In this document: in pieces, positions 1 through 52,329 of the stretch
How the letters are laid out: every line of letters starts with the position of its first letter
How positions within the stretch are numbered: the stretch's first letter is position 1
From: Escherichia phage Mangalitsa
DNA: 52,329 nt
Sequence record: NC_048799.1
Reading direction: 5' to 3' (one strand)
The notes under the pieces: generated by a model
The model's input: only the letters and a program-made list of their open reading frames with translations
Told to the model about the DNA's origin: nothing
Databases searched by the model: none
Program-made: the position numbers and the translations under genes

Positions 1-131
1 TTAAAATACGGTCCCTACCTCAACTTTTTCCTAGAGCCTATCGGCTTTCAATCAACACCAAGTTAGGCGCTTCGCTTATGAGTCAAGGTCAAAGGCAATC
101 AGAGCACGCTGTTGTAATGTGCTAGTCTCAC

Positions 132-150
132 CATTAGTTGGTTGTGATTA
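132..150 (+). promoter_or_regulatory. phage-RNAP-type promoter, variant class (CATTAGTTGGTTGTGATTA), upstream of the RNAP gene
   Basis: Member of a 10-copy motif family with core CATTAGT; closest match is the copy at 26372 upstream of terminase. Confidence 0.5.
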
Positions 151-210
151 TGAATAGGCTACGCAAGTCTAATCCGTTTCAGTTAAATCATAATCAATTG
201 GAGACTTATC

Positions 211-2325
211 ATGACTAACGAAGAATACCGTGCACTGGCTGCTGATGGCGCTCGCTTGAAAGAAGAAGGCCAAGGTTGGAAAGACGTGCTCGATACGATG
301 GACCGTTGCAACCAGATGGTAGATGAAATCACCTCCGCTACACAATCCGAAACTAAAACCGAAACTAAATTGGAGACTCGCAAAATGACAACTATCTCAA
401 CTCAAACTATCAAATCCGTTGTCCCTGCTATCACTGCCCTGGTATACCGTGCTAAAGAGAAACAGAATTACATGCAGCCTCAGACCTGTGCTATTGCTGC
501 TCTTGCAATCTTTAAGATGATGACCTCATTCACTCGTGATGATGTTGTTCCTGCAATGTCAATGGTTGAACTGGCTTCTGCTTCTATTGCTGATGCCAAC
601 CGTTACAACAACGACCTGAAAGCAATGCACTATGTTGACCCGGCTATCAACCTCATTGGTCTGGCTAAACACTTTGGCTTCATCACCATGAACGAAGACA
701 AGTCGTTCCAACAAACTGATGCATGGGTTGAGCTGGTTACTACCAAAGATACCTCAGTTCCATTTACTGAGCGTGTTACCACTGAATCTCGTCGCAAGCC
801 TTTCGTTAAAGGTGGCAAAGTTAAGCCATCCAAGACTCTGAAAGCTGCAATCGAATTCCTGCAAGATACTGAGTACCATGTGGAGACTGAGATGGTTCGC
901 GTCATCCAGTCTATGATTGAACAACGTACCTACGGTGGTTTGCAGGTGCCAGAAGCAATCCAGACTGAACTCCATGTTTGGAACAATGCTGTAGCAATGA
1001 TGACTCAGGACACTCTGTTCTCTGACTACTTTGCTGATAACCGTGGTCGTCTGTATCATGTAGCATGTGCTGGTCCTAACCCACAATCATCTGACTTTGC
1101 TCGTTGCTTGTATTCTCACAATGTTGAGAACATCGTTAAGAAGTTTAACGAAGATGGTTCTACTACCATTGCATACAACATGTTCATGGCAGAGCTGGAA
1201 GATATTTCCGGTGGTGAATGGTGTACTGCTAAGCGTTTAACTTATGTTGCTCAGAATCCAGCTGGTTCACTTGCTCGCATGATGAACATGGACAAATCTG
1301 AACGTCCTTCTAAGCCATTCACTTATGTTCGATTGGCTCTGGATTGGTTCAAGTTTGAGACTACAGGTGAGTGTGATTCTCGAGTAGGCTTTGGCTTAGA
1401 TGCTAAATGTTCTGGTACTCAATATCTGGCATTCATTGCTGGTAACATGGAGATGGCTCGTGCAACAGGTCTGGTTGATTCTGAGACTAAAGCATCTGAC
1501 CCATACCAGTTGAGTCTCCGTGAACTGTTGAAGCTACTGGATAAGTCTTCAATGAAACCATCTCCTGAAATTATGGATGAATTCTTGAATCCGAAAGCTG
1601 GTCGTAAGTTTATCAAAACTCCATACATGGCTATCCAATATGGTGGTGGTAAAGCTGCGTTAACTGGTTCTTCTGACTTTATCTCCTACATGACTGCATC
1701 TCTACAGATTCCAGTTGAGAAAGCAGAAGCATTTGCTGAACTGTGTGTGGAAGCAATCCATAACGCATTGGGTGCTAAGATTAACATGTTCATTGAGAAA
1801 GCTGCTGAAGCTGCATATAACCGTTGTGTTGAACTCAACAAAGAGTACATCACCTATAAGCACACTGATGGCCAAGTTGTAATGAAGCCTTGCTTCCCAT
1901 CTCGTGAAATCTGTGATGCATTCAGCATTCGTGTTGATTCTCAAACTCGTGTTATCTTTGGTCAGATTCAGGAAGAGAAACCTTGGACCATTCGTGAGTC
2001 CAATCCAACTAAGGAAGAATTCAAACGTACCTTCGTTGTTAACTACATTCAAGGTATTGATGCTCTGGTTGCTCGTACTGTTGCAGTTAAGGCTAAAGAA
2101 GCTGGTCTTCGTGGCTTTACTCCAATCCATGATTGTTTCCGTTGCTGTTTGGCTGATGCTCCACGCATGATGGAAGTTATTCGTGCAGCATATGTTGAAA
2201 TCTTTGTAACCAACAATCAATTCGAGAATCTGTCTAAGCAACTTGGTGGCATCAAGATGTATCACGAGAACATCGTAACCGAAGAGCTTCTGATGAGCGA
2301 ACACGCTTACTACTTCTGTCAATAA
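211..2325 (+). CDS. single-subunit DNA-dependent RNA polymerase, T7-like but compact (704 aa)
   Basis: Palm motifs readable in the translation: motif A DAKCSGTQYLA, motif B KFIKTPYMAIQYGGG, motif C IHDCF; RBS GGAGA before the ATG. Confidence 0.85.
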   Translation: MTNEEYRALAADGARLKEEGQGWKDVLDTMDRCNQMVDEITSATQSETKTETKLETRKMTTISTQTIKSVVPAITALVYRAKEKQNYMQPQTCAIAALAIFKMMTSFTRDDVVPAMSMVELASASIADANRYNNDLKAMHYVDPAINLIGLAKHFGFITMNEDKSFQQTDAWVELVTTKDTSVPFTERVTTESRRKPFVKGGKVKPSKTLKAAIEFLQDTEYHVETEMVRVIQSMIEQRTYGGLQVPEAIQTELHVWNNAVAMMTQDTLFSDYFADNRGRLYHVACAGPNPQSSDFARCLYSHNVENIVKKFNEDGSTTIAYNMFMAELEDISGGEWCTAKRLTYVAQNPAGSLARMMNMDKSERPSKPFTYVRLALDWFKFETTGECDSRVGFGLDAKCSGTQYLAFIAGNMEMARATGLVDSETKASDPYQLSLRELLKLLDKSSMKPSPEIMDEFLNPKAGRKFIKTPYMAIQYGGGKAALTGSSDFISYMTASLQIPVEKAEAFAELCVEAIHNALGAKINMFIEKAAEAAYNRCVELNKEYITYKHTDGQVVMKPCFPSREICDAFSIRVDSQTRVIFGQIQEEKPWTIRESNPTKEEFKRTFVVNYIQGIDALVARTVAVKAKEAGLRGFTPIHDCFRCCLADAPRMMEVIRAAYVEIFVTNNQFENLSKQLGGIKMYHENIVTEELLMSEHAYYFCQ

Positions 2326-2367
2326 CATTAATTGGTCAAGGATGACCACAACTACTTGGAGACTACA

Positions 2368-2568
2368 ATGAATACCATGCAAATCAAACAAATCGAAAAC
2401 TGTTTCAATCCTCACCACACTTGCAGCATGACTGATTTATCTCGTCCTACAGTGGAGGAGACTAAAGACTTCTTAGAATTGTTGTCAGAATATAAACAAG
2501 AATCGCATGTATTATTGCATGCATATTTACACAACTCTGGATACTTTGATACAGAGATACCGTTCTGA
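2368..2568 (+). CDS. hypothetical early protein (66 aa) ending in DTEIPF
   Basis: ORF-track frame 2332..2568 begins at TTG; the internal ATG at 2368 has a GGAGA RBS. C-terminus ...SGYFDTEIPF. Confidence 0.45.
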   Translation: MNTMQIKQIENCFNPHHTCSMTDLSRPTVEETKDFLELLSEYKQESHVLLHAYLHNSGYFDTEIPF

Positions 2569-2573
2569 TACTC

Positions 2574-2598
2574 GGGAGCTTCGGCTCCCTTTTCTTGT
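2574..2598 (+). terminator. intrinsic terminator, GGGAGC-UUCG-GCUCCC hairpin plus U-tract
   Basis: Perfect 6-bp GC stem with UUCG tetraloop followed by TTTTCTTGTTT, directly after the RNAP operon. Confidence 0.6.
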
Positions 2599-2620
2599 TT
2601 CAACTAATCTAAAGATGTAG

Positions 2621-2640
2621 CATTAGTTGCATGTGAATAA
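2621..2640 (+). promoter_or_regulatory. phage-RNAP-type promoter CATTAGTTGCATGTGAATAA
   Basis: Identical 20-mer recurs at 3749; family consensus CATTAGTTGR-ATGTGAA. Confidence 0.6.
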
Positions 2641-2660
2641 CAAACAATTTGGAGCATATC

Positions 2661-2825
2661 ATGTTCACAGTACATTACATAAACAAGAACTTATCCGAAG
2701 GTGTTTACAAGTGCGACACACTCAAAGAGGCAAGAGCGTTCGCCAGAAGCTTGAGAGAAGTAATATCTGTTGAAATCACAGATGGCGATAAAGAGTACGA
2801 TGTAGTTAAGCCTGAACTCCACTGA
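2661..2825 (+). CDS. hypothetical small protein (54 aa)
   Basis: ATG 21 nt after the promoter with GGAGCA RBS; below the 60-aa cutoff of the ORF track. Confidence 0.4.
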   Translation: MFTVHYINKNLSEGVYKCDTLKEARAFARSLREVISVEITDGDKEYDVVKPELH

Positions 2826-2838
2826 TTCCCAATATTCA

Positions 2839-2865
2839 GACAATATTGCTGCATGTAATATTGTC
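2839..2865. repeat. inverted repeat GACAATATT-N9-AATATTGTC
   Basis: Perfect 9-bp arms; belongs to the AATATTG..CAATATT family also at 3289, 3538 and the right end. Confidence 0.6.
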
Positions 2866-2876
2866 TCGATATTCGA

Positions 2877-2896
2877 CATTAGTTGGATGTGAAGTA
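2877..2896 (+). promoter_or_regulatory. phage-RNAP-type promoter CATTAGTTGGATGTGAAGTA
   Basis: Motif family member; the prefix GATATTCGACATTAGTTGG is shared with the copy at 10780. Confidence 0.55.
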
Positions 2897-3288
2897 ACAG
2901 AATACGGAGAAGTATTACTCACGTTGTTCGTGGGTTTCCGCATGTCATGTTGAAATCATTCTAGAAACATTTCAGCATGTCAACTAAACATACAGTGTTG
3001 TAATGATGTGGCAATCATTGAACTCCCTGTCTTTGGCCAGACAAAGTTCCAACAACCATGTGTGAAGTAGGATTATTATTCGAAACTGTTCTTCAACTAA
3101 GGCATGTTCACTTGTTTCAATATTGCTTCATCTCCTATTATCAAGGCCCACCCACAAGCCGGGAGATAACTTTGGCAAGACTGGAACTTTTGGACATGCT
3201 TCTTTCTTTCAATCAGAATTCGAAAGAAGAGAAGAGTCGGAGCAAAGTGGCATTACGAATCCCGTAGCCCGCCCCGATTTTGAGCAAC

Positions 3289-3306
3289 AAATATTGTGAC
3301 AATATT
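3289..3306. repeat. inverted-repeat 18-mer AATATTGTGACAATATTG, copy 1
   Basis: Exact duplicate at 3538..3555; imperfect palindrome. Confidence 0.65.
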
Positions 3307-3537
3307 GTCGCAGTATGGCATGTAAATATTGCTACAAATTGGCATGTTAGAATGTGGCAGAATTGTTAGAGGACTAATCACCTCGAAGATACAATTGTCT
3401 ACCAATCCGGCATGTTAATTTTGTAACAGTATTTGTGCCAAATTCGCATGTATTAGCTGTATCAGTATTAACCCAATATTCTTGCAACCCGCATGAATAC
3501 TGGCTTCCAGCCAAGCGAAGGCTTTATCATCGCATGT

Positions 3538-3555
3538 AATATTGTGACAATATTG
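3538..3555. repeat. inverted-repeat 18-mer AATATTGTGACAATATTG, copy 2
   Basis: Exact duplicate of 3289..3306. Confidence 0.65.
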
Positions 3556-3748
3556 GGATAAAACCCTTTATTTAATTAGTTTTATTATGCTGTACATGGT
3601 CGGTTTTCCGTACCTGCTGCGCCACTTCTTGATGTGCCAAATACATTCCAAGATAGGAGCAAACCTGTAATTAATGATGCATGTTTAGTTGTGACAAAAT
3701 TCGTCTATTTGGCAGATGAATTAGTTGCAATTAAGCATGTCCATTTAT

Positions 3749-3768
3749 CATTAGTTGCATGTGAATAA
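3749..3768 (+). promoter_or_regulatory. phage-RNAP-type promoter CATTAGTTGCATGTGAATAA, preceded by a partial copy at 3721..3734
   Basis: Identical to the 2621 copy; tandem partial motif TTAGTTGCAATTAA lies 28 nt upstream. Confidence 0.6.
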
Positions 3769-3869
3769 GACCAAATCTCTGTAAATTCTGCTGAAATTGT
3801 GTGGCAGATTTTAGAGAGATTATGTCTCCAAGCTAATCATTGTAGTTTTCGGCACTTCATGTGTCACAT

Positions 3870-3933
3870 ACTCCCTACAACTTTAAGGTGGATTGAGGTA
3901 AGACAAGACCTCCACAATCGTTCTGTAGGGAGT
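3870..3933 (+). other. structured 5' leader hairpin upstream of gene 3959
   Basis: 10-bp perfect long-range stem ACTCCCTACA / TGTAGGGAGT enclosing an inner GAGGT/ACCTC hairpin; sits between promoter 3749 and the RBS at 3948. Confidence 0.4.
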
Positions 3934-3958
3934 TTTCTTTTAACTTTGGAGAATAAAA

Positions 3959-4207
3959 ATGGATACTGTAATTAAAGCTGCTTGTTTCAAAGACCTGCAA
4001 GATGGTCAAATCTTCACTGTTCGTTCTGTGAAGTGGATTAAAGTAAATGAATCAGATAAGTACAATGCTGTAAAGTTCTTTGATTCAAGTAAGGCATGTA
4101 CTTTTAGCGACAATATTGTTGTCAATATTGAAGTCGAATTAACTCCTGAAGACGAAGATATTGAAGTGGCTCTTCGTAAAACTGCTGGATATAACGAGGG
4201 ATTCTAA
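3959..4207 (+). CDS. hypothetical early protein
   Basis: ORF with GGAGAA RBS; no recognisable motif. Confidence 0.5.
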   Translation: MDTVIKAACFKDLQDGQIFTVRSVKWIKVNESDKYNAVKFFDSSKACTFSDNIVVNIEVELTPEDEDIEVALRKTAGYNEGF

Positions 4208-25821: not shown

Positions 25822-26151
25822 ATGAAACTGTCCTCACCTGTTGTAGTAAATAGTCGCAAAGTTAAATTTGCATACCTCAAGTCTAATGTCACCTCCACTG
25901 GTGGTGGGACTTATCTCACCCGTGCACTTGCAGTTCGCAACGAAACAGGTGCGGATGTCATCGTTTTCATGCTTCCTCATGGTGAAAACACAATCAAGAA
26001 CGTCGAACGTATCAAGCGTGGGCGCGAAGATTTAATGTCGGCTGTTAAGCCGCTAATACTGCCATTTAAGATTGTGGTGGTTGTTGGTTCTACCCAAGCA
26101 TATCTTGAAGATTTCTATAAAGATATGGCCTGGAGCGATATTAAATATTAA
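25822..26151 (+). CDS. hypothetical protein
   Basis: ORF between dut and the terminase region. Confidence 0.45.
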   Translation: MKLSSPVVVNSRKVKFAYLKSNVTSTGGGTYLTRALAVRNETGADVIVFMLPHGENTIKNVERIKRGREDLMSAVKPLILPFKIVVVVGSTQAYLEDFYKDMAWSDIKY

Positions 26152-26205: not shown

Positions 26206-26391
26206 ATGCGCACAATACAATGTCCCAACTGTCATTATGAAATTGCTGAAGATGATTTCATAACGCAACAATGTCCTATCTGTGATTCATACATGCCGCT
26301 AAACCGCCTATACTTAAAGGCTGATTCTGGTTTGGGCAGCATCATTCGCATTAATCCCGTGCAAACTTTGCCATTAGTGGATTGTGATTAA
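26206..26391 (+). CDS. hypothetical zinc-ribbon protein (61 aa)
   Basis: CPNC ... CPIC pairs. Confidence 0.45.
   Translation: MRTIQCPNCHYEIAEDDFITQQCPICDSYMPLNRLYLKADSGLGSIIRINPVQTLPLVDCD
26372..26390 (+). promoter_or_regulatory. phage-RNAP-type promoter, variant class (CATTAGTGGATTGTGATTA), upstream of terminase
   Basis: 17 of 19 positions identical to the copy at 132; overlaps the end of the zinc-ribbon gene. Confidence 0.5.
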
Positions 26392-51880: not shown

Positions 51881-51997
51881 TTGGTTACGGTGAAGGCTGA
51901 CGTTTGTCAGTTAATATGTGAGAAGAGATTCGATGCGTTAGCGTCGTTTCTCTTTGAGCTAGAATAAAACAAGTAAATTAAATATTTATTTATTCCC

Positions 51998-52014
51998 AAT
52001 ATTGCTACAATATT
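51998..52014. repeat. AATATTGCTACAATATT site (related copies at 3325 and 52184)
   Basis: Same family as the AATATTGTGACAATATT inverted repeats of the early intergenic region. Confidence 0.5.
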
Positions 52015-52056
52015 AAGAGTAATATTAGGAATGCGTAAAGTTCAAAACCAAATGGT

Positions 52057-52109
52057 ACATGGTCGGTCAACTGCACCTGCTTCAATCTTCGTTCATGGTC
52101 GGTCGACTG
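52057..52109. repeat. direct repeat ACATGGTCGGTC(A/G)ACTG, two copies 37 nt apart
   Basis: Copies at 52057..52073 and 52094..52109; a third partial copy ACATGGTCGGTT at 3594..3605. Confidence 0.5.
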
Positions 52110-52150
52110 TATCTCGCCGAAATTTGTTCGAACAGAAGTCCGACTATGAA

Positions 52151-52183
52151 ATAATTTTTTTTTTATAATTTTTTTTTATTTTT
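52151..52183. repeat. AT-rich tract with T10 and T9 homopolymer runs
   Basis: ATAATTTTTTTTTTATAATTTTTTTTTATTTT. Confidence 0.5.
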
Positions 52184-52204
52184 CAATATTGCTACAGAAT
52201 TAAT

Positions 52205-52260
52205 GAGACTAGAATTGTTACGATATTGGAGACTCGAATTTGTTCGATATTAACGAGACT
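52205..52260. repeat. three GAGACT-containing direct repeats with about 25-bp period
   Basis: GAGACT at 52205, 52229 and 52255 in similar contexts, followed by TGTGACAATATT at 52268. Confidence 0.4.
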
Positions 52261-52329
52261 CAATCTGTGACAATATTATAATTTTATTTTTGGGCCAGCG
52301 GGGAGGGGAAGCCCAACGTCCTATCGGAC

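Follow-up and report, generated by a model that had tools for sequence, protein, structure and literature searches.

The window analysed here is the whole 52,329-nucleotide record of Escherichia phage Mangalitsa (NC_048799.1), a member of the family Chaseviridae whose direct terminal repeat is 3,234 bp long according to the Mangalitsa paper. By alignment with the annotated or duplicated repeats of phages 4HA13, Myduc, Y2 and PM1, we placed both boundaries of this repeat, which stands as a single copy in the record (1..3234). It carries a single-subunit RNA polymerase gene (385..2325, + strand; 646 aa from this start, in a reading frame open from 211), with a promoter-like copy, CATTAGTTGGTTGTGATTAT, upstream of it (132..151, + strand) and, beyond its end on the same strand, a terminator-like hairpin with a T-run (GGGAGCTTCGGCTCCC; 2574..2599) and a putative phage promoter motif, P1 (CATTAGTTGCATGTGAATAA; 2621..2640), which is the 'putative phage promoter 1' of phiEcoM-GJ1. 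From 2826 to 3958 extends a gap, ended by the first downstream gene (3959..4207, + strand, 82 aa; 'EaE protein' in the annotation of relatives). The initial annotation saw no convincing ORF in this gap, in agreement with the annotations of 11 relatives, which give differing tiny ORFs or none; no ORF is conserved there, and the reading frames across the hairpin H2 described below vary from phage to phage. Identity to relatives is 93-96% in the gap, compared with 90-94% for the polymerase gene and 78-86% for the next 1.5 kb, and the GC content of the gap is 38%, against 44% genome-wide.

As the terminal repeat spans 1-3234, the gap straddles its right edge, and the echo of the gap's repeat families near the end of the record lies just outside its left edge. 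A link between these repeats and terminal-repeat signals had been proposed, and it stands insofar as the gap holds the right boundary and the echo adjoins the left one; the right end of the window, however, is not a physical DNA end, being the end of the database record, and in the virion a second copy of 1-3234 follows position 52329.

All items that the initial annotation had listed in the gap were found, at positions right to within 1 nt. Read rightward on the + strand, the gap first presents the inverted repeat GACAATATT-N9-AATATTGTC (2838..2866, arms at 2839 and 2857), with a GCATGT between its arms, followed by the putative promoter motif P2 (CATTAGTTGGATGTGAAGTA; 2877..2896), a predicted hairpin, H1 (CAUGUUGAAAU / AUUUCAGCAUG; 2943..2982), and the covariation-supported hairpin H2 (3101..3200; 100 nt, 31 pairs), in which GCAUGU at 3102 pairs with ACAUGC at 3194 and whose apex, CCUAUUAU(C/A)AAGGCCCACCCACAAGCCGGG, is invariant. 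The right repeat boundary (3234..3235) falls 35 nt past the 3' base of H2, with a further hairpin, H3 (CUUUCUUUC..GAAAGAAGAG; 3201..3232), just inside it. H3 was seen, and ends exactly at the boundary, only in Carltongylesvirus, so we do not use it as a general argument. Outside the boundary, by 56 nt, a local hairpin (3291..3316) stands on the first of two copies of AATATTGTGACAATATTG, followed by the predicted nested hairpin H5 with its four GCAUGU copies (3317..3451; 3318 pairs with 3446 and 3342 with 3410), whose inner hairpin (3339..3418), supported by covariation, has the conserved apex UUAGAGGACUAAUCACCUCGAAGAUAC. The second copy of AATATTGTGACAATATTG (AATATTGTGACAATATT) follows a GCATGT, the two occupying 3532..3556. 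These two copies, which begin at 3290 (rather than 3289) and 3538, had been described as imperfect palindromes, and are in fact perfect ones of the form 8+1+8. AATATTGCTACAA is present at 3325 and ACATGGTCGGTT at 3594, and the motif GTACATGGTCGGT, common to the left flank, occupies 3591..3625, ~360 nt past the right boundary, as it likewise does in Y2 and PM1. Hairpin H7 (3663..3762), with the apical loop AUUUGGC and closed by GCAUGU at 3679 pairing with 3735, runs into promoter motif P3 (3749..3768), which is identical to P1 and is the 'putative phage promoter 2' of phiEcoM-GJ1, and a long hairpin, ACUCCCUACA..UGUAGGGAGU and then UUUUCUUUU (3870..3941), directly precedes the RBS of the first downstream gene. 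The motif CATTAGTTG[GC]ATGTGAA at 2621, 2877 and 3749 agrees with the phage promoters noted earlier, and all genera examined have a P2-type copy upstream of the folded region.

About eleven GCATGT motifs had been noted in the gap; on the + strand we counted 12 (all in 2851-3757), against ~11-13 in the remaining ~50.7 kb and 25 genome-wide. The - strand has one copy in the same interval and 13 in the genome. In 11 phages the + strand carries 9-14 copies of GCATGT per phage and the - strand 0-1, and in five genera the innermost palindrome lies ~40-60 nt outside both repeat boundaries. Markov shuffles gave 4.65 +/- 1.8 sites that match AATATTGT-N-ACAATATT at 12 or more of its 16 positions; the window has 23, of which 15 fall in 2478-3538 or 51998-52272. 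The recurrence of the repeat families at 51998-52283 was likewise found to be well beyond chance, with 18 same-strand 10-mers in common between 2826-3958 and 51890-52329, where pairs of random regions share 1.06 +/- 1.4 (at most 10).

The left flank holds, first, a terminator-like hairpin and T-run after the last, nrdB-like gene (51931..51956, + strand), conserved in relatives. It is followed by a palindrome, AATATTG-CTA-CAATATT, inside TTCCCAATATT...AATATTAGGAA (51993..52031), whose arms are kept and whose centre differs in 4HA13 and Y2, then by two + strand copies of CATGGTCGGTC(A/G)ACTG (52055..52110), a T-rich tract (52151..52183) and four tandem + strand units of ~24-26 nt (52185..52288), each with a degenerate AATATTG..CAATATT palindrome that is succeeded by GAGACT in three of the four. 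The number of units differs among relatives, and the innermost of their palindromes stops ~52 nt short of the left repeat boundary. All genera keep the GTCGGTCRACTG motif, and CGGTCGACCT is present in Aeromonas phage ZPAH14. At the left terminus itself ends a mini-hairpin, GTCC-TATC-GGAC (52318..52329, + strand), with compensatory stem changes in PM1 and Myduc (CTCCC-TATC-GGGAG); a second one, AGCC-TATC-GGCT, lies at 33..46 on the + strand, and CCTATCGG occurs in the window only at 37 and 52320. The right repeat boundary is followed by GTCGGA(G/C), and TCGGAC stands at the left one.

Folding of the gap is strongly strand-dependent, with a predicted energy of -266.7 kcal/mol for the + strand (z -7.6) and -234.9 kcal/mol for the - strand (z -3.1). 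The + strand is the more stable one by 32-110 kcal/mol in nine phages, and by 57 kcal/mol in the distant phage ZPAH14. Compensatory changes occur in three hairpin modules across at least seven genera. In the inner H5 hairpin 93.9% of cells are paired and both sides have changed in 12 of 24 pairs, compared with 5.5 +/- 1.4 after shuffling (none of 500 shuffles gave 12) and 0-2 in slid controls, and the architecture of H5 was predicted independently in 10 phages, with spacings kept at 24-36, 66-69 and 34-58 nt. For H2, scored across 15 lineages on an alignment guided by a covariance model and thus biased toward the structure, 92% of cells pair and both-side changes affect 24 of 31 pairs (8-14 in slid controls). 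From a plain MAFFT alignment of H2 from the different genera, RNAalifold recovered the apex alone, since sequence by itself does not allow the arms to be aligned, a difficulty that the covariance model solved. The apical stem of H7 covaries as well (GC 5, UA 3, UG 2, and similar). Pairs are thus kept by compensatory changes above controls, as expected of a conserved structured RNA, and G·U cells far outnumber A·C cells (39:4, 50:4 in H2 and 43:2; ~10:1 overall). The GCAUGU:GCAUGU pairs are invariant and therefore provide no covariation evidence themselves, and their pairing through two G·U wobbles, possible on the + strand only, accounts for the strand bias of GCATGT. Taken together, these observations make a conserved + strand structure in the gap highly probable. 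They also show that the GCATGT motifs and most inverted repeats of the gap behave as arms of + strand hairpins, which is the main new finding here.

This finding bears directly on the initial suggestion that the palindromes are binding sites for one dimeric DNA-binding protein, which is not supported as the main explanation, since GCATGT and most of the inverted repeats behave as paired hairpin arms with compensatory changes, invariant G·U wobbles and a large excess of G·U over A·C. The gap is probably a folded RNA or a genome-end signal, and not a row of protein-binding sites. Nonetheless, operator or iteron arrays in double-stranded DNA, bracketing the repeat and bound by one dimeric protein of phage or host in packaging or early-transcription control, would account for the 17-bp palindromes (8+1+8), whose arms are conserved in sequence and whose centre is free in many copies and several genera, for their placement just outside both boundaries, and for the four tandem units of the left flank, which shows no RNA-type strand asymmetry. 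Degenerate copies of AATATTG/CAATATT also lack compensatory changes; given this and the sequence conservation of the arms, sequence-specific recognition fits them better than structure alone, and a protein may bind them, especially at the left flank, where folding is weak and without strand asymmetry. For this reason we do not extend the structural explanation to the echo. As an account of the whole arrangement, operator arrays are unlikely: GCATGT is strictly strand-specific, a duplex DNA site does not predict long-range compensatory changes with preferred G·U, the spacing in the right-hand region is irregular, and scans for DnaA and IHF consensus sequences gave no clusters, the only two DnaA boxes lying within the P1/P3 promoter sequence. 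Among ~30 small or unknown proteins scanned against Pfam and PHROG, no HTH, RHH or small-terminase-like protein was found, and for the proteins encoded at 25822-26148 and 26206-26388, upstream of the large terminase, the only matches are PHROGs of unknown function. An iteron-type origin is likewise not indicated: the left flank has tandem units of 24-26 nt, but spacing in the gap is irregular, and the scans gave no initiator-like protein. Readings of GCATGT and the palindromes by eye as sigma-54, extended -10, CRP, LacI or DeoR-like sites were dropped because their spacing or conservation does not fit; early sigma-70 promoters are not enriched (8 -35/-10 matches, 11.5 +/- 3.5 expected), and a tRNA/tmRNA scan gave none.

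We propose instead that the gap templates a + strand nucleic acid that is untranslated, conserved and densely folded. Covariation by itself cannot tell RNA from + strand single-stranded DNA, since DNA hairpins also tolerate G·T, and we regard RNA as the probable form. In its simplest version, the phage's own T7-like RNA polymerase would produce an RNA of ~1 kb starting at P2 (2877), and also at P1 (2621), that would fold into at least six hairpin modules. GCAUGU would act as a recurring clamp, two copies pairing through CAUG and two terminal G·U wobbles, and the AATATTG/CAATATT repeats would serve as helix arms that pair locally or with each other. With the gap at the right edge of the repeat and the echo outside its left edge, the two repeat-rich stretches bracket the polymerase-carrying repeat in concatemers. 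In five phages the 3' end of H2 and the right repeat end are 35, 44, 41, 40 and 39 nt apart, and H2, together with the related left-end mini-hairpin (YCC-UAUC-GGR), could mark the sites where the ends are cut, possibly through a polymerase transcribing out of the repeat, as in T7; the GCAUGU-clamped array downstream would form a structured leader ahead of the early genes. One report counts against this reading, namely that Yersinia phage PYps23T has a repeat of 2,339 bp whose ends fall within promoter copies. A cis-acting role of the hairpins at the concatemer junction is a tentative suggestion, drawn from their position. As the best overall explanation, a cis-acting structured region at the concatemer junction, transcribed by the phage polymerase and with its function deduced from its location, has a probability of about 0.5. 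A more ambitious version, in which H2 and its left-end miniature set the genome ends by a transcription-coupled process, in a myovirus family with 3-kb repeats, and the AU- and GU-rich GCAUGU array is in addition an RNA device that responds to temperature and underlies the growth of these phages at low temperature, appears improbable to us.

Transcripts of the phage polymerase could alternatively prime DNA synthesis from P1 and P2, as at the T7 primary origin, where a T7 promoter is required, as it is at every T7 origin (PMC8373140). Such an origin might also use a pre-primer of the ColE1 RNA II type, or displaced + strand hairpins as single-strand initiation signals. Its location matches that of T7 phi1.1A/1.1B, just downstream of the polymerase gene, and it could draw on the three putative promoter motifs (2621, 2877 and 3749), on the low GC content of the gap, and on the T7-like helicase-primase and DNA polymerase genes of the phage, with the best-folding strand presumably being the one displaced by rightward primer extension. 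However, no discrete AT-rich block follows P1 or P2, the ~1 kb of conserved structure far exceeds what T7 needs, and neither the left-flank echo nor the constant spacing between H2 and the repeat end would be explained, such that we consider an origin a doubtful account of the region. Still less probable is an injection stop like that of T5, at which the polymerase-carrying repeat would enter first, entry would pause at the hairpin- and palindrome-rich region, and newly made polymerase would pull in or release the rest. The T5 region has the same architecture (a repeat edge, untranslated, rich in repeats and better conserved than its neighbours), and the authors of the Myduc study proposed T7-like transcription-assisted entry, but the paired DnaA boxes of T5 are absent, and a signal at the DNA level would not predict selection for G·U-tolerant + strand pairing. 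A trans-acting non-coding RNA running from P2/P3 to the hairpin and U-tract at 3870-3941, serving as protein sponge, anti-defence decoy, processing scaffold or thermosensor, would suit the invariant loops of several hairpins (the apices of H2 and H5, and AUUUGGC in H7), the terminator-like element directly before the first gene and the best growth of this phage group at low temperature, but is very unlikely given its lack of similarity to Rfam families, its nearly constant pairing and its failure to explain why the region coincides with the repeat boundary. The thermosensor idea has no computational support, as predicted pairing is nearly unchanged between 20 and 42 C.

A search of the whole window against Rfam 15 yielded zero matches at the gathering score, and a permissive threshold applied to 2560-3980 gave chance-level matches only (E 0.8-4.4, far below gathering), making the gap a candidate new RNA family. 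Full-text literature searches returned none of the motif strings and no Chaseviridae transcriptome. Chaseviridae, for which a preference for growth at low temperature has been described, are candidates for biocontrol and therapy, and the 17-mers, the GCAUGU pairs and the apex of H2 offer mutable targets that bear on the cutting and duplication of long terminal repeats, a question for T5 and T7 too.

Several known systems share parts of this arrangement. Most of the T5 untranslated region falls within the left terminal repeat, with 270 bp extending beyond it, and the region is better conserved than the neighbouring ORFs (bioRxiv 10.1101/866236). Like the gap, T5 Repeat Region 3, with the injection stop, lies across the right edge of a long terminal repeat in which the genes expressed first are found, and both are large, untranslated and repeat-rich regions conserved above their neighbours. 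The two phages belong to different families and differ in their early genes (A1/A2 in T5, a T7-like polymerase here), and the T5 region, with its paired DnaA boxes, is treated at the DNA level, whereas here we find + strand-specific compensatory changes, G·U tolerance and the GCAUGU clamp. The T7 primary origin (phi1.1A/phi1.1B) resembles the gap in its tandem phage promoters immediately downstream of the polymerase gene, but comprises ~200 bp of promoters and an AT-rich stretch and has no kilobase-long series of conserved hairpins. With the palindromic operators of dimeric HTH repressors and the repeat clusters of lambda cosB and P1 pac, the arrangement shares clustered dyad-symmetric sites, here of 17 bp, around DNA cleavage positions; unlike them, the palindromes here take part in long-range wobble pairing, GCATGT is strand-specific, and the protein scans gave no cognate protein. 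At the T7 concatemer junction, as here, a phage polymerase promoter is directed at the terminal repeat's right end. Short-repeat arrays lie on both outer sides of the T7 repeat, and an inverted repeat is implicated in the hairpin-end intermediate. The T7 repeat is 160 bp long and gene-free, in contrast to the 3,234 bp with a polymerase gene described here, the class II pause signal of T7, ATCTGTT, is absent near the boundary in Mangalitsa (nearest + strand copy at 2765, window counts at chance), and the Mangalitsa repeat has a conserved 100-nt hairpin at a fixed 35-44 nt from its end.

The gene-free gap that follows the RNA polymerase gene (2826-3958) is dense in short repeats, and every element that the initial annotation listed there was recovered in the window, with positions off by at most 1 nt. 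GCATGT occurs 12 times on the + strand within 2851-3757, compared with 11 times in the other 50.7 kb, and a single copy lies on the - strand within the gap region. Sites resembling the 17-bp palindrome (at least 12 of 16 positions matching AATATTGT-N-ACAATATT) number 23 in the window against 4.65 ± 1.8 expected, and 15 of these fall in the gap and the second non-coding region, at the record's right end (51998-52283). The proposed echo between these two regions is significant, with 18 same-strand 10-mers in common, where random region pairs give 1.06 ± 1.4. An alignment of 57 GCATGT sites, drawn from five genera, revealed a composite motif, in which GCATGT is followed by the palindrome at a fixed offset. 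As initially suggested, the gap lacks a convincing ORF, with none conserved in the relatives, and its sequence identity to them is 93-96%, compared with 90-94% for the polymerase gene and 78-86% for the next 1.5 kb. A further GGCATGT lies at 4093, inside the first gene past the gap; GACAATATTGTTGTCAATATTG lies 15 nt after it (4109-4131) and consists of two direct CAATATTG copies.

By database comparison, the 52,329-bp window is closest to phiEcoM-GJ1-like myoviruses, which encode a T7-like RNA polymerase and belong to the Chaseviridae (genus Carltongylesvirus). The ICTV describes this family as having linear, non-permuted genomes with terminal repeats of ~3 kb, and its promoters as "not yet identified". 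For Mangalitsa, repeats of 3,234 bp were published, based on PhageTerm, and the two genome-closure primers given in the same paper both occur in the window. Annotated repeats span 1-3120 in 4HA13 and 1-3202 in Myduc, while the records of Y2 and PM1 contain both copies (2,608 and 2,665 bp). When aligned, the left ends of all four lie no more than 5 nt from window position 1 (...CCTATCGGAC|TTAAAATACGGTCCC) and the right ends align to ~3234, such that the gap straddles the right repeat boundary. The echo region thus retains its suggested link to the terminal repeat, lying directly outside the left boundary, but the point where the record stops does not correspond to a physical end; in the phiEcoM-GJ1 record, 51890-52329 and 1-384 form a single intergenic region. 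The published repeat of Yersinia phage PYps23T (2,339 bp) differs from those of the other phages, starting and stopping inside two promoter-motif copies (CATTAGTTGGA|CGTGAA and CATTAGTTGGA|TGTGAAG) that correspond to window ~142 and ~2887, and not at the boundaries common to Mangalitsa, 4HA13, Myduc, Y2 and PM1. Either the phages truly differ here, or the ligation-PCR assay switched templates between the two promoter copies.

The confinement of GCATGT to the + strand is explained by its pairing behavior: two GCAUGU copies form C-G, A-U, U-A and G-C pairs plus two terminal G·U wobbles, whereas the complement, ACAUGC, cannot self-pair in this manner. Four copies are predicted to build a nested hairpin (H5, 3317-3451), in which the outer two (1 and 4) pair with each other, as do the inner two (2 and 3); the same hairpin, with conserved spacing, was obtained in 10 of 10 phages folded singly. 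RNAalifold analysis of 11 sequences from at least seven genera paired the GCAUGU at 3342 with that at 3410, with compensatory double changes in 12 of the 24 inner pairs. Explicit counting found 93.9% of inner H5 cells paired and 12 pairs changed on both sides, versus 5.5 ± 1.4 in shuffled alignments (0/500) and 0-2 in slid controls. In a second hairpin, H2 (3101-3200), the apex is invariant, and the arms differ among genera yet remain complementary; with a covariance model derived from close relatives, it was found in 15 of 15 lineages, with 92% pairing and double changes in 24 of 31 pairs, compared with 8-14 in slid controls, in an alignment fitted to the model. In Proteus phage Myduc, a 218-nt tandem duplication (2785-3166) holds two complete H2 copies, each with a preceding GCATGT, and the repeat boundary comes after the second. 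Another GCAUGU pair closes H7 (3663-3762), a hairpin with covariation in its apical stem. G·U cells outnumbered A·C cells by 39:4, 50:4 and 43:2. The + strand of 2895-3760 folds at -266.7 kcal/mol (z -7.6) versus -234.9 (z -3.1) for the - strand, and across nine phages the + strand was more stable by 32-110 kcal/mol (z -5 to -10). No Rfam family matched the window or the gap. The covariation fits RNA and + strand single-stranded DNA alike.

H2 and a mini-hairpin are positioned close to the genome ends. Counted from its 3' base, H2 precedes the mapped right end by 35 (Mangalitsa), 44 (4HA13), 41 (Myduc), 40 (Y2) and 39 nt (PM1). The mini-hairpin, GUCC-UAUC-GGAC, has its 3' edge at the left end, and its stem is compensated in PM1 and Myduc (CUCCC-UAUC-GGGAG). 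A second mini-hairpin copy, AGCC-UAUC-GGCU, occurs at +33, and the YCC-UAU...GGR theme recurs in the H2 apical stem. In Carltongylesvirus, TCGGAC or GTCGGA(G/C) is present at both boundaries. These are positional correlations; H2 and the mini-hairpin might mark the cutting sites.

The surrounding layout is syntenic in five genera, with its elements in this order: left-flank palindromes with GTCGGTCRACTG, left repeat boundary, promoter-like site, polymerase gene, terminator, promoter motif(s), a CCTATTATAAAGGCCCACCCACAAGCCGGGA element ~100 nt before the right boundary, the right boundary itself, a palindrome 40-60 nt outside it, the GCATGT array, GGTCGGT ~360 nt out from that boundary, promoter motif and first gene. 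Aeromonas phage ZPAH14, a distant member, keeps this layout, but its repeat sequences differ: its equivalent gap (3127-3453) carries a different + strand repeat, CATARGTATGAGACA, spaced by 23-26 nt, and its + strand folds 57 kcal/mol better. Its left-flank motif CGGTCGAC is shared with GTCGGTCGACTG of the window.

A promoter-type motif, CATTAGTTGGTTGTGATTAT, lies within the terminal repeat upstream of the polymerase gene (132-151), with copies in 4HA13, Myduc and PM1, and its location suggests that the polymerase may transcribe its own gene. The polymerase ORF is open from the ATG at 211 (704 aa); most relatives start at the equivalent of 385 (646 aa), the 58-codon upstream extension being common to Bp10 only. 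The first gene past the gap has, directly 5' of its ribosome-binding site, a long hairpin conserved in the genus (ACUCCCUACA...UGUAGGGAGU, then UUUUCUUUU; 3870-3941) that might terminate or attenuate transcripts originating at the promoter motifs P2 (2877) and P3 (3749).

Together, these results establish that conserved + strand hairpins form a chain, that conserved phage-promoter motifs lie upstream of it and that the right repeat boundary falls inside it. From this we infer probable transcription of the gap by the phage polymerase and a possible cis-acting role at the concatemer junction. The initial proposal of sites for a dimeric DNA-binding protein may still hold for the sequence-conserved AATATTG/CAATATT arms, chiefly in the left flank, where no strand-specific folding is seen, but no candidate protein was found in scans of about 30 small or uncharacterised proteins. 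A T7-type replication origin, for which the position of the gap, corresponding to that of phi1.1A/B, would argue, ranks third. Of the genome's three consensus DnaA boxes (TTATTCACA, - strand), two fall in P1 (2621) and P3, identical promoters on either side of the gap, at 2632-2640 and 3760-3768; the total of such boxes equals chance expectation, and they are not kept in Y2 or PM1. Plaque formation by Mangalitsa is limited to 30°C and below, and ST32 bursts yield 602 phage at 20°C versus 2 at 37°C; no computational link between the folded region and low-temperature growth was found, since predicted pairing is almost the same from 20 to 42°C.

The T7 pause sequence is absent near the right boundary. 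The closest architectural analogue is the untranslated Repeat Region 3 of T5 (1.2 kb), which is rich in repeats and palindromes and thought to contain the injection stop signal. The paired DnaA boxes of T5 were not found here. Both regions lie across the right-hand boundary of a terminal repeat, in T5 the left one, and both are more conserved than their neighbours.
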